IMG/VR virus record: IMGVR_UViG_3300026097_000009
Span: 32,001 to 96,000 of that record
Origin: a virus
Strand: one strand, 5' to 3'
Length of the DNA stretch: 64,000 nt
The notes under the pieces are model-generated. The model made no database searches and was not told the origin of the DNA. It was given only the letters and a program-made list of their open reading frames with translations. Shown here piece after piece: positions 3,819-46,942 of this stretch. A program made the position numbers and the translations under genes. The stretch's first letter is position 1. Every line of letters starts with the position of its first letter.

Positions 3819-3826
3819 TATAAATA
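3819..3826 (+). promoter_or_regulatory. T4 late promoter TATAAATA
   Basis: Exact TATAAATA 27 nt upstream of the ORF at 3854. Confidence 0.6.
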
Positions 3827-3853: not shown

Positions 3854-4189
3854 ATGCGTCCAATGTGCAAATGTGGTGAAAGACCCAGGGCAATTAACTA
3901 TAAAAAAAATGATAAAACGTATTATCGAAGTCTATGCGAAGTCTGTTTATCTAACGGCTTGTATCACAGAGTTCCTAGATGGAAACGTGCAGGTTACAAA
4001 ATTAAAGACAAATGCGAACGCTGTGGATTTACATCAGCTGTAGCTAAAGTTTTTAAGGTTTTTCATGTCGATGGAGATCTAAACAACTGTAGGTACAGAA
4101 ATCTAAAGACTGTTTGTAGTAATTGTTCTATCATAATTCAACAAAGCGAAACACGATGGAAGATAGGAGATCTAGAAGCAGATTTTTAG
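3854..4189 (+). CDS. Small Zn-finger / HNH-like protein
   Basis: CKC..CEVC and CERC..CSNC zinc ligands; FHVDGDLNN..NLKTVC resembles the HNH core (HHxDG.....N..NL..LCxxCH). Confidence 0.7.
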   Translation: MRPMCKCGERPRAINYKKNDKTYYRSLCEVCLSNGLYHRVPRWKRAGYKIKDKCERCGFTSAVAKVFKVFHVDGDLNNCRYRNLKTVCSNCSIIIQQSETRWKIGDLEADF

Positions 4190-16032: not shown

Positions 16033-16467
16033 TCAAGATCGTGTTGGATTATTTATAGTTTCGTAGTATGTGGCGCTAAAAATAGCCCTTGCACCGTCTA
16101 ATAATGTACTGTTGTCGTATGTGCTTCCGTCTGGGCTTTCGGCAGGATTTATAATTACATTTACATTACTGTTGTCAACGGTTGCTGTAACATCGATAAG
16201 ATTTTCTGAAAGTGTGAGAGACCCATAAACTATAACATTTGCTTCACTCGGACCTGCTAACACCGAACATTTTAATAGTTGTTTTCTTGCGTTTGAAATA
16301 TCAACCACAATAGTATAGTCGGCAGCCATAAATTCGCCAACATACCATTTATCTAGGATTGTGTTTGATTCAACAGGAACCCAAGGACCTTTGTAAGAAA
16401 AGTTTACACCGTTTTGTAATCTAAGGGTTTTATTAAAACCACGAAAAAAATACTTTGAAAAATCCAT
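16033..16467 (-). CDS. Hypothetical virion protein
   Basis: 144-aa beta-rich ORF with late promoter TAAATA at 16487-16492. Confidence 0.65.
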   Translation of the reverse strand: MDFSKYFFRGFNKTLRLQNGVNFSYKGPWVPVESNTILDKWYVGEFMAADYTIVVDISNARKQLLKCSVLAGPSEANVIVYGSLTLSENLIDVTATVDNSNVNVIINPAESPDGSTYDNSTLLDGARAIFSATYYETINNPTRS

Positions 16468-16493: not shown

Positions 16494-17087
16494 TTAATTT
16501 TTAATGTTTTCGATTTTTGTTTTAAAAGCAACGGTTGTGCGTAAACCCTTGAATGTTTTGTTGGGCGGAAGACCGTGATGTTCTATACTACCTTGAAAGA
16601 ACGCAACTCTTCCAGGTTTTGGTAAAATCTTTTTAATTCCTGATTTTAAATGCAGAATAGTTTCACCTCCCCAGGCGTCATGCCATTCTCGATTTGCATA
16701 GTATAATATTGTTATACTATCTTCAGTAGGATGATCAGTATGTGGAATAGTATCATGAATATATTGTTGCCCATTGACCATAATTTCGTGACACTTTACG
16801 TCATATTTAAGATTATTAATTAGTACCTTGTAAAACATTTTCCAACAGGTGTCAGTGTGTATATGTGATACCGCTGGAAAAATCTGTTGTTTTAGACATG
16901 GAGTTTCATTAGTGATGTTATCTTCGAAATAAGTTGTATGCCCCCAATTCCAACCATAAGAGTTATGAATAGTGTCGTGAACATGATCCACAAACCAATC
17001 AGGAAACAGATTATCAAGAACTAACAGTTTGTCTTGATAAGGATTAAAATCGTTAATCTTATCTGTTTCCTCTTGGGTAGATATCAT
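16494..17087 (-). CDS. 2OG-Fe(II) dioxygenase (prolyl-4-hydroxylase-like)
   Basis: HTD (HxD), TILYYAN.EW..AWGGET, PKPGR..FF.G.I.HH and the R.TVAFK 2OG-binding Arg. Confidence 0.9.
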   Translation of the reverse strand: MISTQEETDKINDFNPYQDKLLVLDNLFPDWFVDHVHDTIHNSYGWNWGHTTYFEDNITNETPCLKQQIFPAVSHIHTDTCWKMFYKVLINNLKYDVKCHEIMVNGQQYIHDTIPHTDHPTEDSITILYYANREWHDAWGGETILHLKSGIKKILPKPGRVAFFQGSIEHHGLPPNKTFKGLRTTVAFKTKIENIKN

Positions 17088-18877
17088 CAGTTTTTAACAG
17101 TAATTAATTTACCATATTCAGGTAAGAACAGATATTCAATATCCGAATTTACCAGTGTTCTAACAGCATCGTCAAGTGTTTCTACGAGAGGTTCGCCTCC
17201 TAGATTAAACGAAGTATTAAACACAATCGGTACACCGGTTTGCTTATAAAACTCTGAAATTAGAGAATGATAGTGTTCGTTCTGTTCAGGAGTTACTGTT
17301 TGAATTCGACAGGTTCCATCTACATGGATAATACTAGGAATTTTTTCAGCGATCCCTGGCTGGCATTTTACTGCGTACATCATATACGGTGAGTCTTCCA
17401 TTCCTCTTAGATCGAACCAATCATGCACATGTTCAGCAAGAATTGACCCTGCAAACGGACGGAAGTATTCACGACGTTTAATCATGTTAACAAAATCTTT
17501 ACCGTCTTCAAATGTTGGATCGAATAGGATACTTCTGTTACCTAACGCCCTCGGACCTGCTTCTGAACTTCCTTGGAATAGAGATACAATATTTTTCTCT
17601 TTCATTAATGCTACAACGTTTTCATTATTTGCATCGGAAATTTCTACACCGTATTTTTCTACCACGCTAGAAATATCAGAGTCTGTATAATTGTATCGTG
17701 GACCATGATACAAATCTTTCAAAGGACGAACAGTCATATCGTCTTCAATACCGTGCCAGAACATCATTGCCGCACCTATTGCTGTTCCTGCATCATTAGA
17801 TACTGGCTCTACAAACAGCTCGATTCCTTCGTCCTTTAACTCTTCAAGATAATAATAATTAGCCACACAGTTTAAGCCGTATCCACCGGACAGCACAACT
17901 TGCTTCTTTCCTGTTTTTTCAACAGCCATTCTAATAACTTTTAATACCTGTTCTTGGGTTGCTTTCTGACATGCGTATGCCATATCACGACGATTCTGTT
18001 CTTTTGTTAAATCGTCACTTTCAGGAATATCATTTATAAACTCGAACACATTTTGATTTACAAATGCGCCTTGTGGGTAATTAGGAATAAACAGGTCACG
18101 GTTTGCTCTATCACCGTAAGCAGTTGGTCTAAAGAACTCCGGAATTTTATCATTCTTTTCACCGTATGGAAATAATCCCATTGTTTTTCCTGCTTCGATT
18201 GCTGGAAATCCGCAGTATTCTGTAACGGCTTCGTATACTTTTGTAATGCCGCATGTATCAGAGAATACACATTCATGCGTATAACCGTCTTCTGCATAAT
18301 ATGAGCTGTCGAAATCTGGAACATAAGAAGATACAATAGGATCTCGTGCTCCTAGATGCTTCCAGACAGTTCTAAAATCTGCAGGATACGAACAATCGAT
18401 GATACTTTCTGTTTCGAAGAAAGTTAAATGACTGTCTCCATATGAAATAGGAACAAATGTTCCTGCGCCATCTACAACAACAGCTACCGCATCTTCAAAA
18501 CCCGAACGATAAAACGCACAGGCCGCGTGTAGCTTATGGTGCATGAATGCTAAATCCACAACCTGTGGATGATTTAGGCCAATATGAGGTTCGATTAGTC
18601 CTACTTTTCTTGCAAGTGCTGTATACACATCGTCAGGAGAGTAATCAATTTTTCCTGCGCTGCCTAGTTCAGTTGTGTGGGCAATAACTAGATAGTCAAT
18701 TTTATCTGTATACTCTTTTATTTTAAGCATAGAAGCAAGAGGACCGCCATCATATTTCTGACGGCTAAATCTTTCTTCTTCTGTGGCAAAGACTAACTCG
18801 CCATCCTTTAATAAGCATACGCCGGAGTTATGGCCTCTAGCAATACCAGCTACCCATGTTGATTTTTTATCACTCAT
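17087..18877 (-). CDS. O-carbamoyltransferase (NodU/CmcH/TobZ family)
   Basis: EEERFSRQK, HHKLHA, VVDGAG, AGKTMGL, SGGYGLNCVAN, NDAGTAIGAA, EAGPRALGNRSIL, KRREYFRPFA, HVDGTCRIQTV, NTSFNLGGEPLV. Confidence 0.95.
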   Translation of the reverse strand: MSDKKSTWVAGIARGHNSGVCLLKDGELVFATEEERFSRQKYDGGPLASMLKIKEYTDKIDYLVIAHTTELGSAGKIDYSPDDVYTALARKVGLIEPHIGLNHPQVVDLAFMHHKLHAACAFYRSGFEDAVAVVVDGAGTFVPISYGDSHLTFFETESIIDCSYPADFRTVWKHLGARDPIVSSYVPDFDSSYYAEDGYTHECVFSDTCGITKVYEAVTEYCGFPAIEAGKTMGLFPYGEKNDKIPEFFRPTAYGDRANRDLFIPNYPQGAFVNQNVFEFINDIPESDDLTKEQNRRDMAYACQKATQEQVLKVIRMAVEKTGKKQVVLSGGYGLNCVANYYYLEELKDEGIELFVEPVSNDAGTAIGAAMMFWHGIEDDMTVRPLKDLYHGPRYNYTDSDISSVVEKYGVEISDANNENVVALMKEKNIVSLFQGSSEAGPRALGNRSILFDPTFEDGKDFVNMIKRREYFRPFAGSILAEHVHDWFDLRGMEDSPYMMYAVKCQPGIAEKIPSIIHVDGTCRIQTVTPEQNEHYHSLISEFYKQTGVPIVFNTSFNLGGEPLVETLDDAVRTLVNSDIEYLFLPEYGKLITVKN

Positions 18878-19818
18878 TCTGTCACCTTGGTTGATTCTGT
18901 AATATGTGTAATTATGTGATCTACAATGTCGTCTGTCATGGTCATGATATTCTCCATTTTTCGATCTACACGCTCGTCTATGGTAATTCTAATTGGACTA
19001 TATTCTCTATCAATTTCTCCCAAATCCATAATTGTAATAAAATCACAATCTGGATAGGATACATTTATAGGATAAGTTGATCCTGTAATCACGGTTGCAT
19101 TTTTTTCCATAGAATATGCTAAGTGTTGCCCTACACTATCGCATCCTAAAAAATGATCAGCATGCTTAATAATTGCTCCCCACTGTCTTAGTGGAACATT
19201 TTCCGGAAATGCAACTTCATCTTTTAATTTTTCATCGGTGAGATCTACCTTAAATTCTGACATTACAACAATGCCAAATCCTTCTTTCTGTAACCTTTTA
19301 ATAATTTGCTTGAGATTTCTAAGCTCGATACTTCTAGCAGTTCTATCAATTAGAGTGTCATCGACTATTTCAATTCCTCTACCAAAAGGCTGTATAACAA
19401 CGACCTTGTCTTTCTTGGTTCTAGATTTAACTTCGTTGATTACCTGTCTTCCAAAAAGCAATTCATCTTTTGAAAGATTTAAGGTCGGTGCTGGAAGATC
19501 TCTAACACCTTTATTATTAATTTCTAAATCAAATGCTTGAGATAAACTGCATTGTTGATTGTAATATTCCCATATGCGATATGGCTCCGTGGAAATAATA
19601 TCCATATTGACAAGTTTGTCTTGGAAAATATTCTTGTGCCATGCATCATACACTTTGTCGTCAAGTGTTGGATGCCCTTTAAAAATATCAGATCCGCCTT
19701 CGCATACGATTATAAAATCGTCGGTAACTTCTTCTTGGTATTTTTCAAATGCTGGTATAGAACAGATCATTCTTCCTGCTCCACCGTTGATAAAAAATGC
19801 TTTAGGTCTTGTTGTCAT
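18874..19818 (-). CDS. GT-B glycosyltransferase, GT9 (heptosyltransferase-like); start revised to 19818
   Basis: NGGAGRMICSIPA (G.GD-like), VVIQPFG and LRQWGAIIKHADHFLGCDSVGQHLA match the GT9 motif L.....LI..A..F.G.DSG..HLA. Confidence 0.75.
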   Translation of the reverse strand: MTTRPKAFFINGGAGRMICSIPAFEKYQEEVTDDFIIVCEGGSDIFKGHPTLDDKVYDAWHKNIFQDKLVNMDIISTEPYRIWEYYNQQCSLSQAFDLEINNKGVRDLPAPTLNLSKDELLFGRQVINEVKSRTKKDKVVVIQPFGRGIEIVDDTLIDRTARSIELRNLKQIIKRLQKEGFGIVVMSEFKVDLTDEKLKDEVAFPENVPLRQWGAIIKHADHFLGCDSVGQHLAYSMEKNATVITGSTYPINVSYPDCDFITIMDLGEIDREYSPIRITIDERVDRKMENIMTMTDDIVDHIITHITESTKVTE

Positions 19819-19843
19819 GATGTTCCTGCTCTTGGTTACATTA

Positions 19844-19872
19844 AGTATAAAACTAATTATACAAAAATGCAA
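19844..19872 (-). promoter_or_regulatory. Sigma70-type promoter driving the GT9-carbamoyltransferase-2OG cassette
   Basis: TTGCAT (19872-19867), 17-nt spacer, TATACT (19849-19844), then AGGA and ATG at 19818. Confidence 0.7.
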
Positions 19873-19896
19873 CCGCGAGTAGGAAAAAAGAGTGTA

Positions 19897-20562
19897 TTAA
19901 TCTTCTGCGTATTGATAAATGTCAGGATCTGCTTTGAAGTTGATTTTCCAATGCGGAACTGTCTTGGACATTTCCTTAGCACTTCCTGCCCATGCAAGCC
20001 ATTCATTGATTTCTTCAATTAGAGCGTCATCAAACTTATTTTGATTCTTTTCTTTAATTTTAGAAATCTGCTTGATCTTGCGATCTAAATTTTCATGAAA
20101 TTCTGATTCGCTCATATGATAATTAGCAAATGGTGGACGCATATAAGTCTGCGATCCTTTATCATAATACAAGAAACCATCATGAATATGGCCTAATACG
20201 CCTGTTTCATCTGGATAATCGTATACGAATGTATCGCCGTTTGGCAATTTTTCTTCGTAGTTTTCGATATCACCGTGACTGTATGTGTTTGTTAACCAGG
20301 CCGCTTCCCAGGTATGTGTTTCAGCATCTAAAATAATTTGATAATGATCCACTAAGTTTGTTTTCTTCATACTTTCTAGTTGTGCAACACCATTAGCATC
20401 GTCGGAAGAAAAATCTACGCACCAAACTCTGTGATTTTCATCGCTGGCTATTCTAAGAAGAAGATATCTCGGACCATTATACATCGCCTGATATCCTTTG
20501 CCTTCATTGGTTGTTTTTCCGTACGGTACATCAGGTACTGGAATAAAAAATTCTTTTATCAT
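19897..20562 (-). CDS. Hypothetical protein, possible tail-fibre assembly chaperone
   Basis: Directly follows the three Cys-rich genes; C-terminal EWLAW...VPHWKINFKADP loosely resembles Tfa-type chaperone tails. Confidence 0.45.
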   Translation of the reverse strand: MIKEFFIPVPDVPYGKTTNEGKGYQAMYNGPRYLLLRIASDENHRVWCVDFSSDDANGVAQLESMKKTNLVDHYQIILDAETHTWEAAWLTNTYSHGDIENYEEKLPNGDTFVYDYPDETGVLGHIHDGFLYYDKGSQTYMRPPFANYHMSESEFHENLDRKIKQISKIKEKNQNKFDDALIEEINEWLAWAGSAKEMSKTVPHWKINFKADPDIYQYAED

Positions 20563-21581
20563 CTTGTTCTATCCTTATAAAATGTTATTCTAACTGCGCC
20601 TAAGCCGCCTCTTGCACCTGTGCTACGTGAGTTATCGCATGGTGCTGCCGGAAATCCGCCGACACCGTAAGGCATAATGTTAATACAACCTAACATCTGG
20701 TTATTACCGCAAGCTTTAACACTGTTCCAACAGCTAAATTTAGCAGGTGTTCCTCTAGTCGGCGAACGAGCGGCCGCGTTCAACGAATTTGTAAACTGTG
20801 TAAAAAAGTTTCCGGTCCAATGTTGGAAATCGTTATTGTTTTCACCAGAGAATGTAACAACAGCACCTTCTTCTGCAAAAATTCCAGGTGGAATAGCAAT
20901 ATGATGATGGTGCTGACAAACACAGTCTGGCAAGCATCCTCTAAACGAAGAACAACTGAAGCCGCCACGACAGTTGACATCTCCTCCGTATGCTTCTGCA
21001 CAGCAACCTACAATTTCTCTGTTGCCGTCGCCTACGATTCCTTCACCGTAATTGCATATCAGTCCGCAACATGTACAGCATGATGTTCCACAATGGCCGC
21101 ATTTAATGAAGCAACAATACGGAGAGCCGCCGTCCATACAATATGACACGCCGCCGCGTCCACCTTGAGCACACATACATCCATCTTCGCCTGCACCTGC
21201 TCTGGTTCTTCCAAACCAACATAACTGCGTAGGCTCTGAACAACCTCTGAAGCACAATGCATCGGCATTGCTACAGCTACGTCCTAAAACACCGCAAACA
21301 ACACAGCCGCTTATAACACAGATACATCTCTTTGAGTATGCGCCTGGATTACCCGGAAGACCAGTACCGCAACAACATTGCATTGCACCAGAGCCGCCAG
21401 CTCCCCACATTTCAATTTTTGCTACACCGGTGTCTGGAGCTTCCCAGCAAAAGAAATTCCCTGCTGATGGTGAATACATGTTACCATCTGCGAATGCATA
21501 GATTCTGCCTTCATCGAGATTAGATTCGTTGAGTTCGAGTTGGTCTGTTCTTGCTTTTAATAAATCACTTAAATTCGCCAT
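20559..21581 (-). CDS. Cys/Gly-rich fibre-tip-like protein, paralogue 3
   Basis: About 35 Cys in 340 aa; EMWGAGGSG..CCC..G.PGNPGAY and terminal G.RGG.GAVRI typical of Gly-rich phage fibre domains. Confidence 0.7.
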   Translation of the reverse strand: MANLSDLLKARTDQLELNESNLDEGRIYAFADGNMYSPSAGNFFCWEAPDTGVAKIEMWGAGGSGAMQCCCGTGLPGNPGAYSKRCICVISGCVVCGVLGRSCSNADALCFRGCSEPTQLCWFGRTRAGAGEDGCMCAQGGRGGVSYCMDGGSPYCCFIKCGHCGTSCCTCCGLICNYGEGIVGDGNREIVGCCAEAYGGDVNCRGGFSCSSFRGCLPDCVCQHHHHIAIPPGIFAEEGAVVTFSGENNNDFQHWTGNFFTQFTNSLNAAARSPTRGTPAKFSCWNSVKACGNNQMLGCINIMPYGVGGFPAAPCDNSRSTGARGGLGAVRITFYKDRTR

Positions 21582-21590
21582 TTTGTTTCC

Positions 21591-22682
21591 TTAACTATAC
21601 GCACAGTATGAATTAGTGCCTATATACTTAATTCTAACAGCACCTTGACCGCCACGGCCGCCGTGGTCTCTAACGTTCGGACATGGCTGAGCTGGGAATC
21701 CCGGAACCCCATAAGGTACATACGGAATACAGCCTTCAGCTTCATAACATCCACAAGCCCTGCTGTGTCCCCAGCATTCATTATAAATGTGTCCGCTTGG
21801 TTGTCTACTCATATCGTCCAATGCATTGTTGTGTGGTACTAATGCACCGCCTGAATGCCCGCCTTCTCGGCTGTCGCTTTGTGGAGTATAAGAAAACACA
21901 ACACCTTCGTCACTAAACACACCTGCTGAAGTTGCAACATGGTGCTGGAAGTGACAAACACAACGTCCCTTACATCCATAAAATGATGTACAACTGAAAT
22001 GTCCTGTGCAGTTCACGTCTCCGCCATATGCACATGCACAATCTGAGCCTCGACAAATGTTACAGACTAATACACACCCTTGAGAAGCTCCGAGAGGTGT
22101 CAGACAAAGTCCTCTGCCACCATAACAACACTGTATTGTGTAATCATTTTGACAGATTGTGATACCGGCTCTGCCACCCTTTGCACATATACAGCCAGCA
22201 GTTGCACCAACTTCACAACATAGTCCGAAACTTGGGTCGTAATCGTGTCTGCACATTGGACCGTAACCTACATTTTTACCACAATTCATGGGTCTATTAC
22301 CTAGTGCGTGAGGCGCACACCCTGTCCAACAAATACAGGTAGCTTCTGAACAACCTCTAAAACATCTGTTATCTGCATTACCGCAACTTTTTCCAATGAT
22401 ACCGAATACTACATTATCCGGACAAACGCATAAACATTTTTTAACATATGCGCCTGGATTTCCTGGCATGCCCATTGCACAACAACACATACGAGATCCA
22501 GACCCTGAAGCTCCCCATGTTTCTAAAACTATGCATCCGGTTCCTGGTGGTCGCCAGCAAATACCGCACTGAAATCTCGTGTATTCATTACCTTCGGCCC
22601 AAACAAAGATTCTTCCTCGTTCAAGATTTTGTTCACGAACAAGATTTCTTTCACCTAATAATTGAGTTAATCTATTAGCCAT
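21591..22682 (-). CDS. Cys/Gly-rich fibre-tip-like protein, paralogue 2 (start revised to 22682)
   Basis: About 41 Cys in 363 aa; ETWGASGSGSRMCCC, AYGGDVNC, VRDHGGRGGQGAVRI. Confidence 0.7.
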   Translation of the reverse strand: MANRLTQLLGERNLVREQNLERGRIFVWAEGNEYTRFQCGICWRPPGTGCIVLETWGASGSGSRMCCCAMGMPGNPGAYVKKCLCVCPDNVVFGIIGKSCGNADNRCFRGCSEATCICWTGCAPHALGNRPMNCGKNVGYGPMCRHDYDPSFGLCCEVGATAGCICAKGGRAGITICQNDYTIQCCYGGRGLCLTPLGASQGCVLVCNICRGSDCACAYGGDVNCTGHFSCTSFYGCKGRCVCHFQHHVATSAGVFSDEGVVFSYTPQSDSREGGHSGGALVPHNNALDDMSRQPSGHIYNECWGHSRACGCYEAEGCIPYVPYGVPGFPAQPCPNVRDHGGRGGQGAVRIKYIGTNSYCAYS

Positions 22683-22692
22683 TCTATAATTC

Positions 22693-23724
22693 CTATGTTT
22701 GTCCGTTACCAATTTGTCCGAGAATTGCACAATTCAAACCGTACATGTTCTCGCCACAATATGTCAATCTAATCAATCCAGGGCCACCACGTCCGCCGTG
22801 ATCTCGCACTCCCGGACATGGCTGAGGTGGTCTGCCGCCGATTCCATAACTGTTATACATTACACAACCGAACGATTCATAACATCCGCAGTGTCTTGAA
22901 GAGTCATAACACTGAACATACGGTGAACCTATGGTTGGACTCGTGCTCGCAACATTTTGTGAATAGTGTATTTGATTCTGGCCTCCGCCACTCCAGTTTT
23001 GGAATCCGTTGTTTTCTTCGTGCGGTATAGTTAAATGTGTTCCTGATTTTCCGTAGATATTCGCGGCAACAGCAACATGACTAACTTGGCAGCAAATATT
23101 ATTCGCTTCGCATCCTCTAAAGCTTACACAACTAGGACATCCGCAACAGCCGACATCGCCTCCTAGTCCGCAAGGAACATGCATTCCTGCACACATATTA
23201 CACACAATCGCACAATTATCATTGTCTAATCTTGTGTGACAAAAACCTGCGTTTGCATAACAACAATATGCTGAATTTCCTGACGTTGCACAGAATGCAA
23301 TACCTGCTTTTCCGCCTTGAGCGCACATCCATCCTGCTTCGTAACCACAGCGATCTCGACCACACCAGCATAGCACGGTAGGTATACTACAACCACTGTC
23401 ACACAATTCATGTGCTCTACAAGCCATTCCTGGACAACCGCAAATAAAGTCTCCGCAGTCTACACAGATTTGCTTTCTTACATATCCGGGTGCGTTTCCA
23501 GGTAAGCCGAAACCACAACAGCACATACGAGATCCGCTTCCTGCCGCTCCCCACATTTCAATAACTAAAGTTCCACGTCCGGGGGCTGGCCAGCAAAATC
23601 TCATATCAGAACGAATACACGCTTCGTTAAGTTCTGGCGCAATTGTGAAAACTCTATTTCTTTCTAGATTAGATTCGTTTCCGTACAATTGTCTTGTTGC
23701 CAATAAATCCGATAGAGATGACAT
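22693..23724 (-). CDS. Cys/Gly-rich fibre-tip-like protein, paralogue 1
   Basis: About 38 Cys in 343 aa; EMWGAAGSGSRMCCC, GGDVGC, VRDHGGRGGPGLIRL. Confidence 0.7.
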   Translation of the reverse strand: MSSLSDLLATRQLYGNESNLERNRVFTIAPELNEACIRSDMRFCWPAPGRGTLVIEMWGAAGSGSRMCCCGFGLPGNAPGYVRKQICVDCGDFICGCPGMACRAHELCDSGCSIPTVLCWCGRDRCGYEAGWMCAQGGKAGIAFCATSGNSAYCCYANAGFCHTRLDNDNCAIVCNMCAGMHVPCGLGGDVGCCGCPSCVSFRGCEANNICCQVSHVAVAANIYGKSGTHLTIPHEENNGFQNWSGGGQNQIHYSQNVASTSPTIGSPYVQCYDSSRHCGCYESFGCVMYNSYGIGGRPPQPCPGVRDHGGRGGPGLIRLTYCGENMYGLNCAILGQIGNGQT

Positions 23725-23742
23725 AATTTTTCCTATTAAATC

Positions 23743-24069
23743 TTATAAACCGCTGAATACCCAACCGTATGTAGCACCAGAATAAACAAACGTTATTGCC
23801 GCATTGTCTAGATTCAAAATTAAATCTTCTGAATAATTTTGAATTTTTTCACTGTTTCTACCTACTGTAACATTGTTGACACTAAACTGTCCTGCAACAT
23901 CAATTATTTGTAGTGTATCGCCTACAGTAGGTGACACAGGTAAATTAATTGTGAATGCAGAAGAAGAAGTGTCTGCAAAAATTCTTTCATTTGCAGATGC
24001 ATCATATGCACTTGTTACAGTTACGTTGTTAGCTCCTGATGTACCAAATGTTGCTACTGATCTTCCCAT
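23743..24069 (-). CDS. Stand-alone tail-fibre domain (T4 gp34 N-terminal-repeat-like)
   Basis: DTSSSAFTINLP.SP.VGD...I.D..G.F..NN.TV.RN..KI.....DL.L......I.FVY.....GW is a common phage fibre module. Confidence 0.65.
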   Translation of the reverse strand: MGRSVATFGTSGANNVTVTSAYDASANERIFADTSSSAFTINLPVSPTVGDTLQIIDVAGQFSVNNVTVGRNSEKIQNYSEDLILNLDNAAITFVYSGATYGWVFSGL

Positions 24070-24411: not shown

Positions 24412-27400
24412 TTATCCTCCTAACAAGAAGTAGTTTAATGTTACTGCATCGCCGTCGATGCCACCTACGAAGTTCATCTTAGTATTTATAAAGATTTGCG
24501 TTTCTGTAGTCGTAGTAATTTCTTGCCCAGCAATGAATATAACACCTGCCGTTAGCGTATTTACGTTCAAACTGGAGCCACCGCCACCGATTTGGCTTGT
24601 AATATATGCTTTAATAGCTCGCTGTGTTGGAATAACGCTGTCTGAATCTGCTGTAAAGAACGGATCTGTACTAAATTCAGTGACTGTTGCGCCTGAGCCG
24701 CCTAGTGCTACTGATCCCAAACTTAATTCATTCAGTCCTGCAATATTAAATGCATCAGCATTCAATGTTGCAACACCGGTTGACTGTTCAACGTTAAACA
24801 ATCCGCCAACTCGGAAGTTACCGTCTTGGTCCGTACTTGTGAAGAACACACGACCTCCGCCTGAATCAACCGTTTCGTTTGCAGGAATTGGATCTTGCAA
24901 AGGCAATCCTGGATAGTTTGTCTGTGTTTGGTTACCAGTACCTATATCTAAGAAATCGTGACCTGTTAAACGTACCTGCGAATAGCGTCTTCTAAATGTA
25001 GTCGAAGTCTCGTGTTCAGGTGCTTCTGCTACTCCAACTTCAGGAGATACCTGAATTGTTGCAGTATAAGGTGCCGAGGTTCCTACTAGATTTCTAATAG
25101 TTACTACTCGATAATAGATATCGTCAATTCCGCCTATTCTTAAATTCGAACCTTCTAACGGCACATTTGTTAAATTCTTAACATCAATAAATGTACCTGT
25201 CTGATAGTTATCAGCAAATCCGTCTCCAGTAATTACAGCTGACGCCGCAGAATAGTTAGCTCCTCTATTAGTAAACGTAGGCTGTGCTAATACGCCATTA
25301 CCTATTCTAACAGTATGAGTTGCATCGGCTCCAATGTTGTTTGGATCTGTAATTGTCATAGTCGGAACTGTTGTATAATTACTTCCTGGTTCATGAATCT
25401 TAATTTGTGTTATAAGTTCGTCTGAAACAGATGCTCTTGCTCTAGGTGTCGCGCCAGCAAAGAACTGTACTGCATTTCTTCCGCCTGCACTTAGCGCAAT
25501 AAATCCGCTATTGCTGTAAGGCCCGCCAAATGCTACGGCACTCCATAGTTTTCCAACAGTAGCGAACATTGAACCGGTGCCATCTGTTAACTGAATCGGT
25601 GTGCCACCTTGTGTTGCACTCACAGTAAATGTAGTTGAACTAGGAATACTTTCGATAAACAATCTTGTATCAGTATCTAATCCACCGAACAATTCAGTTC
25701 CTGCAGAATCATTTGGAATAAAGATTGTATCACCGACACTTAATTCTGCAGTGCTGTCAACTGTTAACAGATTTGTATTTGCTTCATAACCCAACACATT
25801 AGCTGTGTTTGTGTTAAATGCAACTGTTACAAATTCGTTATCTACATCGTTGCCGACAATATCTATCCAATTTGCTGTGCTCTGTGTAGTATCAGCTGTC
25901 CAAGTAATACCGTCTTCGCTGATTAATGCATCATTGCTGTTGTATGAAACCGCAACAAACACTCCTCCTGCATAAGATACAGCATTCCAGTTACCGCTTG
26001 GTACAGTTACGCTTGACCACGTTTCGCCACCGTCTGTCGAATATGCAAAGTTTGTAGAAGCTTGGCTAGAATTTCCAGCTACCGCTACAAATTTGCCGTT
26101 ACCGTATGCAACACTACTCCAGTAATCGCTGGCTGGTAGTGTGCTTGCTGTCCAAGATGCGCCGTCATTTGTGCTGTATGCTCCTGCGGTGCTTGCGGAT
26201 GATACTCCTGAAACTGCTACAAATGCACCGTCACCGTATGCAATGCTGGTCCAATCAGCAAATGCAGGTAAGGTGCTTGCAGTCCATGAAGTTCCATTGG
26301 TTGAAAATTCTGAAGTGTTTGTACCTATTTGAACAACTACAAATGTTCCGTTTCCGAAAGCAATATCTGACCAATCTCTGGTGTTATTTAAAACATTCGA
26401 GTTAAACGTCCATGTAACACCATCACTAGAAGTTGCAACATCGTTACTACTGAAATACGGTATTACATAAGTTCCGTTGCCGTAAGCAATAGCTCTTGCA
26501 TCGTCAGAACCTGTAGGAATAGTCCTATTAGTCCAGGTTTTCCCGTCAGGTGAAGTAGCTACTGCAATACTGTTTCCTGCTACAGCAACATATTGATCGT
26601 CAGTTGTACTATAAGTCACCGCGCTCCAGTCTGAAGTCGACGGCAATGTACCTACCTGCCAATCTACAACAGTATCTTTAGATGTTTGCAAGATATCAAT
26701 TTCTTTAACAGTAGCATTTCTCTCTGTCCAAGTTAAACCATCTTGAGACGTAGCGGCTACTTCACTTTCAGCTAACGCTAAGAATACACCGTTGCCGTAT
26801 GCAATTTTTCTCCAATCATCACTGCTTGTAATAGCACTTAGATCTTTTCCTAAGTCTGCCCAGGTTTCTCCGTCGTTACTTACAGCAATTGCTCCATTTT
26901 TATCAGCAATCGCAACAAATATGTTGTTACCGAATGCTAAATCCTGCCAGTTTGAATCTGAACTATCGTTGTTTGCAGGTAATGTAGAAGCAGTCCAGCT
27001 TACACCGTTTGTGCTGTAAGCGGCTTCTGCACTGAAGTTGCCTTCGATTACTACAAATTTACCTAAGCCAAATTCAATTGCTTTTGCACCGCTCGGTAGC
27101 GAACCAGTGTTCCATGTAGTTCCTGCATTTGCGGATACAGCCCTTAGTGTGCTAGAAGAATCACTTTCTGCTATTGCAACTACCAAGTTATTTCCGATAG
27201 CTAAGTCAACCCAATCAGCGGCTTCTCCTAATGATCCGCCAGCAGTCCAATTAACTCCATCTAAACTGTATGCAGTATCTGTACTTTGCTTGGCTACTGC
27301 TACATAGTAACCGATACCACTAACTACACCGTAGGTTACAGCACTCCATTGAACACTTGAAGGCATTCCTGCAATTTCCCAGGTAATACCGTCTTCACTC

Positions 27401-39721: not shown

Positions 39722-40771
39722 TTATCCTATTGTTAATGCAAATCTAATTGCAATATCATTTGCTTGTACTTCAGAAACAGCACCAGTTGTACCTGCTGGA
39801 CTTGCCCAGCTTATACCGTCCCAAATTTCTAAAGCACCTGAATCTGTATTATATCTAGTCATACCTATCTCTGCATATGCAGTTGGTCTATTTCCTGAAT
39901 CACCCACAGGAGGAACAAATCCGTTTGTACCAGCAATTTTAAAATAACCATCTCCTGACTGCTGTAAAATAGATATACTGTCCTCTACCGCATTTGTAAT
40001 AGTATTATCTAATATCTCAAAATTTCCTAAGTTAATACTACCGGATCCGTTTGCTTCTAAATTTAAATCACCCGTAGATGTAGTAATTTCGTTGTTTGCA
40101 AAATCTATATTACCTACTGTGAACGTATTTAAATTTAGGGTGTCGGCAAATAGATCGTTAGCATAAACATTTTGCCATTTAAAACTGTTTGATCCTAAAC
40201 TATAAGTGTTGTCTTGGTCAGGAATTAAATCACTGTTTATGCTTGCATTAATTTCAATCGAATCTGTAATCTCGTCACCAATAATAATGTTACCGCTTAT
40301 TGTAACATTACCTGTAACATCGATATTACCTGTAACTGTTAAATCGCCTTCGACATTAGCGGAACTTTGTATATCAACAATACCAGTTCCGCTCGGTCTT
40401 AATTCTAAATCACTGTTGCTTACAGTTGTGCTTATTACGTTGCCATTTAGTTCAATATCGTTTACAATAAAACGACTATGGTAAACTGTCGGTTCTAAAC
40501 CACTCGGAGCAAAAGAAATAGTATTGTTGGTGCTTACAATATCGTTCCCTGATATTGTGATTTCGCCAATGTCAAACTGTGTGTCAACATCAAGATTGGT
40601 TACTCGGGCAGTGCCGTTAACATCTAAATTATATTCAGGGGAAGAAGAGTTAATACCGATTCTGCGATCTGTAACGTCTAAATATAATAAATCCGTCTCA
40701 AATGCTAAGTCTACTCCTTCACGAAGTAGATTTGCTTTCAAGAGCGGACCGCTAATACGACCGACTGCCAT
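39722..40771 (-). CDS. Tail-fibre-like structural protein
   Basis: GRISGPLL..NL.R..VDLAF.TDLLYLDV start; P.G....RP....G.TRYNTD...LE..DG motif; ends IAIRFALTIG. Confidence 0.7.
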   Translation of the reverse strand: MAVGRISGPLLKANLLREGVDLAFETDLLYLDVTDRRIGINSSSPEYNLDVNGTARVTNLDVDTQFDIGEITISGNDIVSTNNTISFAPSGLEPTVYHSRFIVNDIELNGNVISTTVSNSDLELRPSGTGIVDIQSSANVEGDLTVTGNIDVTGNVTISGNIIIGDEITDSIEINASINSDLIPDQDNTYSLGSNSFKWQNVYANDLFADTLNLNTFTVGNIDFANNEITTSTGDLNLEANGSGSINLGNFEILDNTITNAVEDSISILQQSGDGYFKIAGTNGFVPPVGDSGNRPTAYAEIGMTRYNTDSGALEIWDGISWASPAGTTGAVSEVQANDIAIRFALTIG

Positions 40772-40896
40772 TTGCTCTCCTTACACCCGGGGATCCTGTC
40801 CCTCTAACCTAATTTTCATCCCTAAGGCTCTTTGCTGGTTAACCACAGTTTGTCCTGTAAGATTAATAGGTCGTTATCTTACATTAATAATATTTA
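40772..40896 (-). promoter_or_regulatory. Late promoter (40891-40896) followed by a ~115-nt structured 5' leader
   Basis: TAAATA, then stems UGUAAGAU/AUCUUACA, the UGGUUAACCA palindrome and GGGA/UCCC just before SD AGGAGA. Confidence 0.55.
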
Positions 40897-40910
40897 TCAA
40901 AAAAATGGAT

Positions 40911-41987
40911 TTAACCGAAGATGAGGCTGTAAATGTTGCCGAGATCTTCCATGATAGGTTCTGATATCACTCGACCTCCACCAGTTGCTACTTGGTATAC
41001 ACTACCGTCGAAGCATTCTAAATAACCAAGATCCGTATTCCATCGAGTATCGCCAACTTCTGGAGAAGTTCGTTCGTCTGTATCTCCTACCGGAACTACA
41101 AAACCATTTGTGCCTCCGAATTTAAGATAACCGTCGCCGGTATGTACTAATTCGTTTTTTGTATCTAACAAGTTGGTTATTATATTATCTGAACCGCTTG
41201 CTTCGAACTGCAAATCTTCTAAAGTAACAACACTGGTGTTTGAATTGAGCTGTAATGCATCGTTTGATTGAATTGTTTTAATTGTGTTTGGAGATTCTAC
41301 TAATACTTGATCACTTGTAATCAGATTGTCTACTGTTACGGTATCAACGCCGGCAAATGCATAAATGTGTATCTGTCCCCATCTTTTCGGATCAGTACCT
41401 AGACTAAATCTTTCTGTTTGTCCAGGTAAAATATCTTGTGAGAAATCAGGTGCGATTGCAACAGTGTCTATAGGATTATCGCCAAGTATTATAGTCCCTC
41501 CTGCGATAGTGAGATCTTGATCTGTGCTAATGTTCTGACCTACAGTTAAATCTCCGTTCACTGTAGTATCTGCTTGCATATCAACAATACCAGTTCCGCT
41601 GGTATCCATTTCTATATTCTCATCAGTACCTAAAGATTTAATATAATTGTCTTTAATTTGAAAACTCGGAGTTAGTGCTTTGCCCCATTCGATATAAGCA
41701 TCCGGACCTGTTGGTCTTATGTTTATTTCGCCTAAAGTTGTTGACCAAGTACTTTGATTATCTAAAGTCACTTTACCGAATATTGCGGTGTTCGTAGCTG
41801 TAAAATCGTCAGTTGTTCGAGAATTTCCCGACAAATCTAAGTCGTAATTAGGGCCGTCGGATTTTAAACCTACTCTACCATTTGCAACATCTAGGTAAAG
41901 TAAATCAGTATCGAATGCCAAGTCTACATCGTTTCGAATTAAGTTCGATTGCAGTAAAGGACCCGATATTCTACCTATCTGTGACAT
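40911..41987 (-). CDS. Tail-fibre-like structural protein, paralogue of 39722-40771
   Basis: Shared N-terminus GRISGPLLQSNLIRNDVDLAFDTDLLYLDV and C-terminal GTNGFV.PVGD motif. Confidence 0.7.
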   Translation of the reverse strand: MSQIGRISGPLLQSNLIRNDVDLAFDTDLLYLDVANGRVGLKSDGPNYDLDLSGNSRTTDDFTATNTAIFGKVTLDNQSTWSTTLGEINIRPTGPDAYIEWGKALTPSFQIKDNYIKSLGTDENIEMDTSGTGIVDMQADTTVNGDLTVGQNISTDQDLTIAGGTIILGDNPIDTVAIAPDFSQDILPGQTERFSLGTDPKRWGQIHIYAFAGVDTVTVDNLITSDQVLVESPNTIKTIQSNDALQLNSNTSVVTLEDLQFEASGSDNIITNLLDTKNELVHTGDGYLKFGGTNGFVVPVGDTDERTSPEVGDTRWNTDLGYLECFDGSVYQVATGGGRVISEPIMEDLGNIYSLIFG

Positions 41988-44660: not shown

Positions 44661-45833
44661 TTAAGAGAAACGTAGGTTATTAGTTGTAACTTCAACTTTA
44701 CTCAGGTAGTCAGCCGCATTACCTAGAGATGATGCAGTGTTTGTTAACTCTACATAACCATATCTAGTCATGAAACTTACTACTGGCTCGAACGTTGATG
44801 GATCTAGTACAACACCGCTTGACATCAATGGGATGTATGGGCAGTAGAACGCAGGTGCGTCTGATTCGCTTGAACCTTTGTATCCAACAAGTACGTTGTC
44901 GTCTGTAGCATAACCGTTTACATATACTCTCATTGCACCGTTAAGTGTACCAACGAACTTAGTGTTAGTTGGAGCTTCGAAAGTACCTTCAGTTGTTCTT
45001 GCGAACGCTGAAGTTGTAGCACTTTGAAGAAGAGTTAATGTAGTTGGTGAAACGACAGCATAGTTACCAGCACCACGACGTGTACGCTGGGCAATTAAGT
45101 TTGCCGCTCTGTTGATTTGAACAGCAAGAGCCGCATGCTCGTCACCTACGAATGTAGCAGTACCAGAAACGGCTGCCTGATCGTATGTTAAAACAGTACC
45201 AGCTAGAGCATTCAAGCTTCCAATCACTTCCTGATCAATTTCAGCAGTAATTTCTTGTGCCAAAGCAGCCATAATCTCTGCTTCTACGTCGATACCTTGC
45301 TGAGCCTGTGCATCTTGCGCAGATTCAAAAGTCCAACGTGCAGAAAGCTTTCTTGACTTAGCTTCAACAGTTTGCTTCAAGATCTGAATGCTTAAACGAT
45401 TACCACCAGTACCTTCTAAAGCCGCTGTATTAGCTGCCTTATCATCAGCTGCCGCGCCTGAATAGCCTTCAGCAATCTTAAATGGTGATAGTGCTTCTTC
45501 GCCAGCAGTAGTATCAGTACCTGATGTGCTGTCAAAGTTGTCCGCATAACGAACACGTAGTGTGTGGATCTGACCCACTGGTCCAGTCATTGGCTGTACG
45601 CCTACCAATTCGTTAGCAATAACGGTTGGCATTACACGTCTGATCACTGGAAGGATCACACGATTTAGTGTTGCAACATTACCGGCGGAAGTAGCACCAG
45701 CGGTAGCACTTTCTGCAAGATACTTACGGGTATTTTCCAGAGTTGCTGCCATAACTGTGCGCTTGTTACCATTTAGACCTTCAAGTAGGGCCTCTTTGGT
45801 TTCCGACCAGCGTGACTCAAGTAGTTGTGACAT
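44661..45833 (-). CDS. gp23: Major capsid protein (T4 gp23 family), start revised to 45833
   Basis: IRRVMP.VIANELVGVQPMTGPVGQI, VEAKSRKLSARWT.E.AQD, EITAEIDQE, FYCPYIPL, FMTRYG; SD AGGAGA. Confidence 0.97.
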   Translation of the reverse strand: MSQLLESRWSETKEALLEGLNGNKRTVMAATLENTRKYLAESATAGATSAGNVATLNRVILPVIRRVMPTVIANELVGVQPMTGPVGQIHTLRVRYADNFDSTSGTDTTAGEEALSPFKIAEGYSGAAADDKAANTAALEGTGGNRLSIQILKQTVEAKSRKLSARWTFESAQDAQAQQGIDVEAEIMAALAQEITAEIDQEVIGSLNALAGTVLTYDQAAVSGTATFVGDEHAALAVQINRAANLIAQRTRRGAGNYAVVSPTTLTLLQSATTSAFARTTEGTFEAPTNTKFVGTLNGAMRVYVNGYATDDNVLVGYKGSSESDAPAFYCPYIPLMSSGVVLDPSTFEPVVSFMTRYGYVELTNTASSLGNAADYLSKVEVTTNNLRFS

Positions 45834-45844
45834 TTTTGTTCTCC

Positions 45845-46942
45845 TCAAACCTTTAGTCCCGCAAGCCTGCGGATATCAAATACTTCGGCAGTGTTCACTT
45901 CACTACCAGTTGATTGTGCCTTTGTTTTTTTGTCGCCTGTAATTTCTTTTGCCTCTGTTAACGCTTGTTTTGCTGGTTTACCGCCATCCATTACGGAAGG
46001 CATATACTTATCAAACTGTTTGCGTAACTTGTCAGTTTGAACAGATTCTAGTAAATCTTTCATGACTTCTCTTTTTTCACTGTTTAACGGTGCAAGAAGT
46101 TCGTTCATAACATTACTTCTTTCAATAGAGTCATTGATAGATTTGATTTCATGATCTTTCGATTCTAATAAATCCCTAGTTTCAGCAACAACTTTCGCCG
46201 CTTCTTCTAGCTCTTGTGTTTTTTGATTCACAACTTTTAGCAGTTTAGCGGTTTCGGATTTTTCATTAAGATAACTCGTGTTATATTCAGTAGCGAAAGC
46301 TTCAAAAATTCTACGACCAAAGTCATTCTGTCTTGCAGATTCAATATCTTCTTTAAGTTGATTAATTTCACCTTTAAGTGTTTTAGATACTGTTTCTGAA
46401 ACCATGCTTGATGCAGTTTTAATAAACTTATTCTTAACTTCATCAAACTTAGCTTTGTTTTCTTTAACAAGCTTAACTTTAGTTTCGGCAAGATCTTGTT
46501 TATCTTCGTAAAATTCAGCTATTTCTTTAGCTAAAGCTTCGACAATAAATTCTTCTAGCTTTTGAATATTATTTGCAACAGAATTGCGATCTTCATGAAG
46601 TTCTGCTATTTCACCTTTTAAATTCTGCAAAACAAAAGCTTCCATAGCCTGTGTATCTTGCTTCATTTTTTGTGCATAGCGAGCTCTTGCTTCAATCAAA
46701 CCCTCACGATCAGCATTGAATTCTTCAAGTTCGCCTTGTAATCTTTCAGACAACATTGACTCAATGGCTTCGACCATTGTAGATTTGTCATGCTCATACT
46801 TTGTTGCAAACTCTTCGCGTAATTCTGTAGCTACCTGTTCACGGTTTTCTTGAATCTTGCTTTCCCAAGCAGTTTCAATTTCCGATTTAATTTCTTCGGA
46901 AATCACATTGTTCTCGAATAAATCTTTTACTATGTCAATCAC
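45845..46942 (-). CDS. gp22: Prohead core scaffold protein (T4 gp22-like)
   Basis: Long acidic coiled coil between protease and MCP; FGRRIFEAF motif. Confidence 0.8.
   Translation of the reverse strand: MIDIVKDLFENNVISEEIKSEIETAWESKIQENREQVATELREEFATKYEHDKSTMVEAIESMLSERLQGELEEFNADREGLIEARARYAQKMKQDTQAMEAFVLQNLKGEIAELHEDRNSVANNIQKLEEFIVEALAKEIAEFYEDKQDLAETKVKLVKENKAKFDEVKNKFIKTASSMVSETVSKTLKGEINQLKEDIESARQNDFGRRIFEAFATEYNTSYLNEKSETAKLLKVVNQKTQELEEAAKVVAETRDLLESKDHEIKSINDSIERSNVMNELLAPLNSEKREVMKDLLESVQTDKLRKQFDKYMPSVMDGGKPAKQALTEAKEITGDKKTKAQSTGSEVNTAEVFDIRRLAGLKV

Follow-up and report, generated by a model that had tools for sequence, protein, structure and literature searches.

Cysteine-rich tail-fibre tip genes with linked glycosyltransferase and carbamoyltransferase genes: a candidate tailoring module in aquatic phages

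Why are genes for sugar-modifying enzymes embedded among the tail-fibre genes of a phage? The question is raised by a stretch of 64,000 nucleotides from the IMG/VR virus record IMGVR_UViG_3300026097_000009 (positions 32,001 to 96,000 of that record; the whole stretch is hereafter called the window), in which three tandem genes for cysteine-rich paralogous proteins are followed by genes for a putative chaperone, a glycosyltransferase (GT), a carbamoyltransferase (CT) and a 2-oxoglutarate-Fe(II) (2OG) oxygenase (Table 1). A preliminary description, made from the sequence alone, had proposed that these enzymes hydroxylate, glycosylate and carbamoylate a fibre tip formed by the Cys-rich proteins. 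The reading preferred here, to which we give an about even chance, is that the locus is a conserved module of late genes devoted to a specialised kind of tail-fibre tip, and that its enzymes would add a heptose-like or carbamoylheptose-like sugar to the tip before assembly.

Fibre tips determine which cells a phage infects. If the preferred reading is correct, host-range prediction from protein sequence alone misses part of the determinant. Tip decoration would then exist in a widespread aquatic phage group, including the model cyanophages P-SSM2, S-SSM7 and S-CAM3.

Composition and predicted fold of the cysteine-rich paralogues

The three tandem paralogues on the - strand contain 38, 41 and 35 Cys (10-11%), exactly as first described, together with 15-16% Gly, and are pairwise 39-43% identical (BLASTP E 1e-85 to 4e-92). 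Since nearly all other open reading frames (ORFs) of at least 70 aa in the window possess at most 2.1% Cys, with the exception of two short ones, this composition is not due to chance; the other virion genes have no more than 2% Cys. The motifs WGAxGSG, CCC, GGD.xC, CGCY and RGGxG, which had been noted in the three proteins, correspond to conserved columns in an alignment of 36 sequences; it exhibits 30 invariant positions, ten of which are Cys. The lineage of paralogue 2 carries a variable insertion of 60-100 aa.

None of the three paralogues matches a Pfam family, PF21722 included, and the search of PHROGs returned one unannotated family only. The Cys-rich family is a small one, with 269 clusters at 90% identity, and its 228 representatives among 1.84 billion proteins are all unnamed. 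Neither megablast with the region nor tblastn with paralogue 3 found a match in the isolate collection, where relatives were reached via the CT and the GT.

Concerning the fold, paralogue 3 was modelled with AlphaFold2 (AF2) from the alignment of 36 sequences (pLDDT 75.5, pTM 0.77). [quoted passage not shown] The predicted viral structures (BFVD) that it matches are uncharacterised proteins of S-CAM3 and P-SSM2 and many proteins designated 'glycine-rich domain'. [quoted passage not shown] Because the paralogues share this layout and have CCC and CxC in place of poly-Gly, we read them as Cys-substituted fibre-tip proteins, with a predicted N-terminal docking helix, TNF-like jelly roll and glycine-rich distal lattice. 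The earlier view of the Cys-rich proteins as fibre-tip proteins is borne out by this predicted fold.

The exchange of poly-Gly motifs for CCC and CxC is partial, and the very high Gly content of the glycine-rich tip fold is not found: the 15-16% of the paralogues compare with 39% in the distal domain of Pam3 gp24 and 30% in the S-CAM8 protein SXCG_00049. It is this low Gly content, combined with 10-11% Cys, for which the term 'Cys-substituted variant' is used. Relatives of the short type, which come from cassettes of the S-SSM7 type, do pass the PF21722 (Gly_rich_2) cutoff of 24.3 bits and cover the full length of this model (S-SSM7_114 with 24.9 bits, a protein of locus L160 with 25.1 bits). 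When the Cys-rich profile was compared by hhalign and hmmsearch with the S-CAM8 glycine-rich protein, gp49 of Aeromonas phage HJ05 and gp67 of Vibrio phage SBP1, nothing significant emerged, since composition bias dominates such comparisons; the links to these proteins are drawn from Pfam, fold or composition. Whatever the enzymes do, a glycine-lattice fold rebuilt with 10% Cys represents an unusual structural variant.

In a tree of 238 family members, position within the array is strongly clustered (10-11 changes, where shuffled labels give about 60). Within each lineage, genes of the first, second and third position fall into clades of their own with good support, and single copies displaced from the array are sister to a third-position clade. 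The tree indicates that three old orthologous groups of paralogues have been maintained, as would be expected if they build an obligate heterotrimer or, alternatively, if they serve as three adhesins on different fibres. Some 20-25 Cys columns reach a conservation of at least 90%.

Linkage of the enzymes to the fibre genes

Judged by CT and GT, the closest cultured relatives are the cyanomyoviruses Sf-FS3, S-SSM7, S-CAM1/3 and P-SSM2/5. Four of them (S-SSM7, Sf-FS3, S-CAM3 and P-SSM2) have a common gene order, i.e., fibre gene, small proteins, Cys-rich genes, chaperone, GT, CT and ADP-heptose genes, with two or three proteins of 8-12% Cys per cassette. The ADP-heptose pathway genes behind CT encode GmhA, a kinase, a nucleotidyltransferase and an epimerase, and are also found in some of the metagenomic loci. 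Among seven complete genomes, GT and Cys-rich genes are both present in these same four and both absent in S-CAM8, P-RSM4 and ACG-2014d; CT occurs in all seven.

The phage of the window is not a typical cyanophage. Its major capsid protein (window 44661-45848, - strand) is 70% identical to that of jumbo phages of the Rak2 type (such as Serratia BF, Erwinia pEa_SNUABM, Vibrio 2.275.O), and its contig of 154,861 bp, rated 44% complete, contains no psbA; on these grounds an assignment to the Kyanoviridae cyanophages was rejected. With several related contigs measuring 350-370 kb, a jumbo myovirus of around 350 kb, Rak2-like by its capsid, is indicated.

The metagenomic sample consisted of about 160 IMG/VR loci, 80 seeded by the Cys-rich profile and 80 by the GT. 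Sixty-three of the 80 Cys-seeded loci contain two or three Cys-rich genes, the chaperone, GT and CT; six are cut at contig ends, and the remaining 11 represent single copies situated around 25 kb upstream in phages with a two-gene cassette, such that the Cys-rich total is still three. Cys-rich genes lie within 10 kb of the GT in 71 of the 80 GT-seeded loci, the other nine reaching the contig end on the relevant side. GT and CT thus stand beside two or three Cys-rich genes in all 71 informative metagenomic loci. The sampled loci contain 107 distinct GTs, forming 20 clusters at 70% identity, and in eight loci the strand of the GT-CT unit is opposite to that of the fibre unit, i.e., the linkage survives inversion. 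It spans both orientations and four cultured cyanophage genera. GT and CT are genetically locked to the Cys-rich tips, and the linkage is tight and old. Co-distribution of five gene families had been named as a check of the tailoring idea; it holds for the Cys-rich genes, the chaperone, GT and CT, and fails for the 2OG oxygenase.

Remote homologues of the GT (24-28% identity) are found in tail-fibre clusters of the Vibrio N4-like phage vB_VspP_SBP1 and of Aeromonas phage HJ05. In SBP1 (locus L176, 5989-9510), the homologue abuts the most Cys-rich protein of the cluster, gp067 (925 aa, 41 Cys), and in HJ05 (locus L175, 4303-6918) it abuts gp49 (559 aa), which has 22 of its 23 Cys within the last 280 residues and weakly matches PF21722. 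As profile searches gave no homology match between these tail proteins and the Cys-rich family, the pairing may be taken as a lead for a wider linkage.

The 221-aa protein encoded directly behind the third paralogue has no direct Pfam match. Its family aligns with the one occupying the same position in S-SSM7, Sf-FS3, S-CAM3 and P-SSM2 (hhalign 99.5%, E 3e-23), members of which match PF16778 (Phage_tail_APC, E 1e-11). By this relationship and its place directly after a fibre gene, which give substance to the earlier label 'putative chaperone', the protein is identified as a Tfa-type tail-fibre assembly chaperone of the Cys-rich tips.

The GT scores only 13.4 bits (E 0.049) against the Pfam model PF01075 of glycosyltransferase family 9 (GT9), the gathering score of which is 22, and the match is restricted to residues 225-268, the donor motif; a precomputed PF01075 match is present in some close homologues. 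When PDB sequences were searched with a profile of the GT alignment, no GT9 protein was retrieved; only the fold search did so. The AF2 model (pLDDT 81) matches every GT9 structure at about Z 18-22.5 (VIA; 22.5 for the Veillonella GT9 3tov, 20.9 for WaaF, 19.4 for TibC, 19.2 for WaaC) and the GT9-like PnsB1 chains at Z 17.7-18.7, whereas the next GT-B fold outside GT9 reaches Z 12.1. The model clearly points to a GT9-fold transferase; the original GT9 assignment therefore stands on the predicted fold, with a Pfam score below threshold. The search does not separate the TibC-type protein heptosyltransferase from the lipopolysaccharide (LPS) type represented by WaaC and WaaF. In the GT alignment the donor motif GCDSVGQH is invariant, and mean column identity is higher in the acceptor-side N-domain (0.80) than on the donor side (0.74), which fits a conserved, phage-encoded acceptor. 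Some cassettes possess a second GT9 copy.

For the CT, the assignment to the NodU/TobZ type is well supported: Carbam_trans_N (Kae1-like) and Carbam_trans_C (YrdC-like) are both matched strongly (103.4 and 197.7 bits; Pfam E values of 1e-58 for one and 2e-29 for the other), and the relatives in the PDB, at E 1e-46 to 5e-61, include 7xb6 (E 5e-61), GdmN (6e-50), NovN (1.5e-48) and TobZ (3e-47). The gene is not confined to the Cys-rich context. In S-CAM8 and P-RSM4, its convergent neighbour encodes a canonical PF21722 fibre protein with few Cys and 30% Gly, and four 2OG oxygenases flank the CT; in HTVC008M a CT homologue is situated inside a plain sugar cluster. The 30%-Gly fibre gene overlaps the CT convergently in both S-CAM8 (locus L170, 10562-11743) and P-RSM4 (locus L172, 7576-8739), where a ferrochelatase-like gene also follows. 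In Synechococcus phage ACG-2014d (locus L174, 5479-6978), a carbamoyltransferase-like gene is placed between those of the major head protein and of gp3, again within a virion module.

Concerning the oxygenase, PF13640 is matched with 35.8 bits (cutoff 27), and the translation contains the iron triad HxD...H as HTD and a downstream EHH, in line with the P4H-like assignment given before. Its gene is absent at this position in the approximately 160 related loci; locus L140 alone has a cassette oxygenase, which is placed elsewhere. The nearest homologues are at most 46% identical, although GT homologues of 82-86% exist, and a pattern scan for close relatives found none. S-SSM7 and Sf-FS3 possess an unrelated oxygenase between chaperone and GT. 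The 2OG oxygenase is thus an optional, lineage-specific addition, with oxygenases entering the cassette repeatedly, and the hydroxylation step that had been proposed as part of the system is not a general feature of it (an oxygenase in one of about 160 related loci).

Other variable genes occur as well. An unannotated family of around 290-320 aa is situated between GT and CT in 28 loci (e.g., L109, 10948-11814; L126, 10965-11927; L137, 11004-12805; 25 more); it has no Pfam match, Atlas gives a weak DUF6071 lead only, and a relationship to GTs was rejected by hhalign. A flavin-dependent tryptophan halogenase is found in some cassettes (L140, 13746-15245; SSSM7_125 of S-SSM7, L001, 15921-17408), which adds to the picture of variable tailoring-type enzymes around a GT-CT core.

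Candidate acceptors of the transferases

According to the tailoring reading, the GT9 enzyme would use a nucleotide sugar as donor and, in the cytoplasm of the infected cell, attach a heptose-type sugar to newly made Cys-rich tips or a partner fibre protein, in the manner of the TibC/AAH heptosyltransferases that act on bacterial adhesins; the sugar would be heptose where the ADP-heptose pathway is present. The CT would then O-carbamoylate this sugar, a step equivalent to that of WapO on heptose II in the LPS core of Pseudomonas, and the 2OG oxygenase would be an optional extra. Carbamoyl-heptose made by GT9 enzymes and WapO is known chemistry (PMC8005017). Once the virion reaches oxic water, the Cys would most likely staple the extended-strand lattice through disulfides. 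Such stapling of a glycine-type lattice is the default assumption, and disulfide bonds are documented in the fibres and baseplate of the Pam3 virion, fibre attachment included (PMC9942802); alternatively, the Cys may serve in inter-subunit bonds, as free thiols, in metal sites or in a thiol-linked modification. The three paralogues would either assemble into a 1:1:1 heterotrimer in the manner of the C1q chains or each cap a fibre of its own. C1q A, B and C constitute a heterotrimer of TNF/C1q fold encoded by three adjacent paralogous genes, an analogy that is a lead only.

A phage-encoded acceptor is favoured by four observations: the placement of the enzymes in a putative late operon, the fact that the GT tracks Cys-rich fibres across unrelated phages, the better conservation of its acceptor side, and the composition of cyanobacterial LPS, which contains neither heptose nor Kdo (PMC4515613), such that the usual GT9 acceptor is missing in such hosts.

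Several points weigh against this reading. The link between enzymes and substrate is drawn throughout from genomic association, and a receptor-modifying enzyme would give the identical gene association. The GT is divergent enough to fall below the Pfam GT9 threshold and to retrieve no GT9 sequence from the PDB, and at the place of the catalytic Asp of WaaC-type enzymes (D13) it has the invariant R16 of the motif NGGAGR, as read by eye from a conserved Pro. No heptose pathway is found in the 155-kb fragment of this phage. A strict order of sugar first and carbamoyl second cannot hold everywhere, because CT occurs without GT beside Cys-poor fibres and in HTVC008M. Finally, an even number of Cys in just 53% of 209 family members and weak Cys covariation (the best pair, an adjacent CxC, has a correlation of 0.66) do not favour a simple monomer with all Cys in disulfides.

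The alternative that survives best, which we regard as unlikely but serious, is that GT9 and CT act late in infection on a glycan of the host envelope, i.e., an LPS-like core or another surface polysaccharide, and so mask or alter the receptor of the fibre. Progeny would then not be trapped on debris, or superinfection would be blocked, and the gene adjacency would have arisen from co-evolution of receptor-binding and receptor-modifying functions. Apart from TibC/AAH, the characterised GT9 enzymes all act on LPS cores, and the fold search cannot tell the two types apart. GT9, WapO and ADP-heptose genes together are the exact inner-core toolkit of Pseudomonas, the neighbouring genes of P-SSM2 and S-SSM7 are classed as LPS genes by Sullivan et al. 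2010 (PMC3037559), and the genome considered here has a further glycan island. Nevertheless, the enzymes are encoded by overlapping genes inside the fibre operon, the GT follows Cys-rich fibres and not host type, with Vibrio and Aeromonas phages included, and its acceptor domain is highly conserved across phages of probably different hosts. Heptose and Kdo are, as said, missing from cyanobacterial LPS, and at a late stage of the lytic cycle new LPS would be unlikely to renew the surface of a host that grows slowly.

A bolder version of the tailoring reading, and a rather doubtful one, regards the GT9-like family with its NGGxGR loop and Arg at the Asp place as a new class of viral protein glycosyltransferases dedicated to Cys-rich tips, on which it would form S-linked heptose that is subsequently carbamoylated. 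If so, this would be the first virus-encoded protein heptosylation of the BAHT-like kind and the first protein-bound carbamoyl-sugar, and phages would have a means of showing a glycan in place of bare protein at the receptor-binding tip.

It is improbable that the GT9-fold protein is an assembly or folding factor for the Cys-rich fibres without transferase activity, the CT having a separate role. Such a loss of activity has a precedent in the GT9-like PnsB1, a structural subunit of chloroplast NDH, the chains of which score like true enzymes in the fold search; it would also fit the invariant Arg at the usual catalytic position (by motif reading) and the fact that the GT stays coupled to tail proteins rich in Cys even in places that lack a neighbouring CT or sugar pathway. 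The nucleotide-sugar motif (G/S)CD(S/T)xxxH and many N-domain residues, however, are invariant even at 24-28% identity, four cultured cyanophages have the genes of the ADP-heptose pathway immediately downstream, and the second GT9 copies of some cassettes are likewise at odds with a folding factor. Least probable of all is the absence of any functional link, with accessory metabolic genes parked in a plastic structural junction and having a small molecule or phage DNA as their substrate: DNA containing 5-hydroxymethylcytosine can be heptosylated by phage GT-B enzymes (bioRxiv 10.1101/2023.12.21.572611), the fibre and neck junctions of cyanophages are known hypervariable regions, and CT homologues occur in other contexts, but the linkage holds in each of the 71 informative loci, spans 20 GT clusters and persists through inversion, the GT fold is that of GT9 and not T4 beta-GT-like, and no hydroxymethylase or TET-like partner is seen within the cassette.

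Organization of the locus and comparison with known systems

All genes between 15336 and 24404 lie on the - strand. In the direction of transcription (24404 to 15336), the 106-aa and 108-aa genes are followed by the three Cys-rich paralogues, the 221-aa gene, GT, CT, the 2OG oxygenase and the 144-aa and 217-aa genes, and giant genes of 2767 aa and 2046 aa are situated on either side of this run. Paralogue 3 and the chaperone overlap by 4 nt, GT and CT by 4 nt, and CT and the oxygenase by 1 nt. The true start of paralogue 2 is probably the ATG at 22682, which has AGGA in front of it and gives an N-terminus matching those of paralogues 1 and 3; for the GT, the ATG at 19818 is most likely, giving 314 aa. 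The 106-aa gene has the same position in nearly all related loci, and in P-SSM2 and S-CAM3 its domain recurs as the N-terminal part of longer tail-fibre proteins. The 108-aa protein is 41% identical to gp159 of S-CAM3.

Table 1. Features of the fibre-tip locus (positions refer to the window)
Feature	Position	Strand	Basis or remark
T4-type late-promoter-like TATAAATA	24483..24490	-	about 80 nt upstream of the 106-aa gene
Small fibre-associated protein, 106 aa	24084..24404	-	PHROG tail-fibre matches; conserved first cassette gene
Fibre-domain protein (Mtd-N-like), 108 aa	23743..24069	-	PHROG tail fibre/tail protein matches, E to 7e-21; conserved second gene
Cys-rich paralogue 1, 343 aa, 38 Cys, 11.1%	22693..23724	-	fold deduced via the paralogue 3 model
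Cys-rich paralogue 2, 363 aa, 41 Cys	21591..22682	-	ORF as called 21591-22730, 379 aa
Cys-rich paralogue 3, 340 aa, 35 Cys, 10.3%	20559..21581	-	the paralogue modelled with AF2
Tail-fibre assembly chaperone, 221 aa	19897..20562	-	hhalign to the S-SSM7/P-SSM2/S-CAM3 cassette family; translationally coupled to paralogue 3
Predicted GT9-fold glycosyltransferase, 314 aa, phrog_8954	18874..19818	-	AF2 model and fold search
NodU/CmcH/TobZ-family O-carbamoyltransferase (CT), 596 aa	17087..18877	-	Pfam and PDB relatives
P4H-type 2OG-Fe(II) oxygenase, 197 aa	16494..17087	-	PF13640, 35.8 bits
Second TATAAATA on the - strand	16050-16057	-	upstream of the 217-aa gene
Conserved cassette-flanking protein, 144 aa	16033..16467	-	part of longer fusion proteins in other phages
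Fibre-like protein, 217 aa	15336..15989	-	ahead of the 2046-aa giant fibre protein

Within the - strand run, TATAAATA is found only ahead of the 106-aa and the 217-aa gene. Its total of six occurrences in the window equals the chance expectation, and it is position alone that argues for a promoter role. The whole cassette may constitute one late transcription unit, possibly starting at the first of these two sites, although this suggestion is a weak one.

Some further genes deserve mention. The two short Cys-rich ORFs excepted above lie on the + strand at 3854-4189 (111 aa) and 55518-55733 (71 aa), have around 8% Cys each and no Pfam match; the former is preceded, 28 nt upstream, by TATAAATA at 3819-3826. 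Two adjacent Cys-poor fibre-like genes on the - strand (39722-40771 and 40911-41987, 349 and 358 aa) have the same PHROG matches and are probably paralogues. The displaced third Cys-rich gene of the relatives sits at the equivalent of about 39722-41987, after the head genes. Outside the window, a glycan island (genome 9052-20490; locus L171, 5052-16490) contains a GDP-mannose 4,6-dehydratase, GT8, GT17 and a sulfotransferase, together with three methyltransferases and a fusion of a cytidylyltransferase with a cupin of the mannose-6-P-isomerase type; several of its ORFs have no Pfam match.

Among the systems to which the locus can be compared, phage-encoded glycosyltransferases acting on virion proteins have a precedent in the glycosylated capsids and tail tubes of mycobacteriophages, where other enzyme families are involved. 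Closest to the proposed GT step are TibC and AAH (GT9; PDB 4RAP/4RB4), with which the locus shares the GT9 fold (Z 19.4), a cytoplasmic enzyme encoded beside an adhesin gene and, as proposed here, a Gly-rich acceptor. There is, however, no detectable sequence similarity to TibC, the phage GT has no counterpart of TibC residues 1-89, and it has Arg at the position of Asp.

The tip itself is most similar to Pam3 gp24/gp25 (PDB 7YPX/7YFW), where the domain order is the same, the chaperone gene likewise lies directly downstream and the virion uses disulfides (PMC9608196, PMC9942802). Despite this similarity, Pam3 possesses a single Cys-poor gene, a homotrimer and a distal domain with 39% Gly, whereas three old paralogues with 10-11% Cys and 15-16% Gly are found here, the chaperone is of the Tfa/PF16778 type, and two enzymes are attached to the module. 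The PF21722 (Gly_rich_2) or 'TG' domain of ALK/LTK, with which the gp38 adhesins of T-even phages and S16 are grouped here, shares the start and end motifs (WGAGGSG..., ...RGGxGAVRI); the three proteins of the window nevertheless match no Pfam model, and their poly-Gly gives way in part to CCC and CxC.

The same pair of enzyme families is described for Pseudomonas, where WaaC/WaaF and WapO (PA5005) produce 7-O-carbamoyl-heptose on Kdo2-lipid A at the inner membrane (PMC8005017), and the ADP-heptose pathway is shared with the cyanophage relatives. The phage genes differ in being situated in a putative late fibre operon, and the LPS of cyanobacterial hosts offers neither heptose nor Kdo.

The same cassette is contained in the 'LPS gene' clusters of P-SSM2, S-SSM7 and S-SM2, where T4-GC 302-308 represent GT, CT and heptose genes behind Cys-rich genes (PMC3037559). 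Sullivan et al. 2010 considered these genes to be LPS genes of unknown use or stuffer DNA, and the accessible part of their text makes no mention of a link to Cys-rich fibre tips and a chaperone; our literature search found no paper tying GT, CT and heptose genes to Cys-rich fibre proteins. What is new here is the predicted fold of the Cys-rich tips, the identification of the chaperone and the wide linkage of GT and CT to Cys-rich genes, and the cassette is far more general than first thought. Since the module occurs in cultured phage-host pairs, the tailoring idea is directly testable, and if it is correct, the long-standing puzzle of the cyanophage 'LPS genes' gains a concrete and testable answer.

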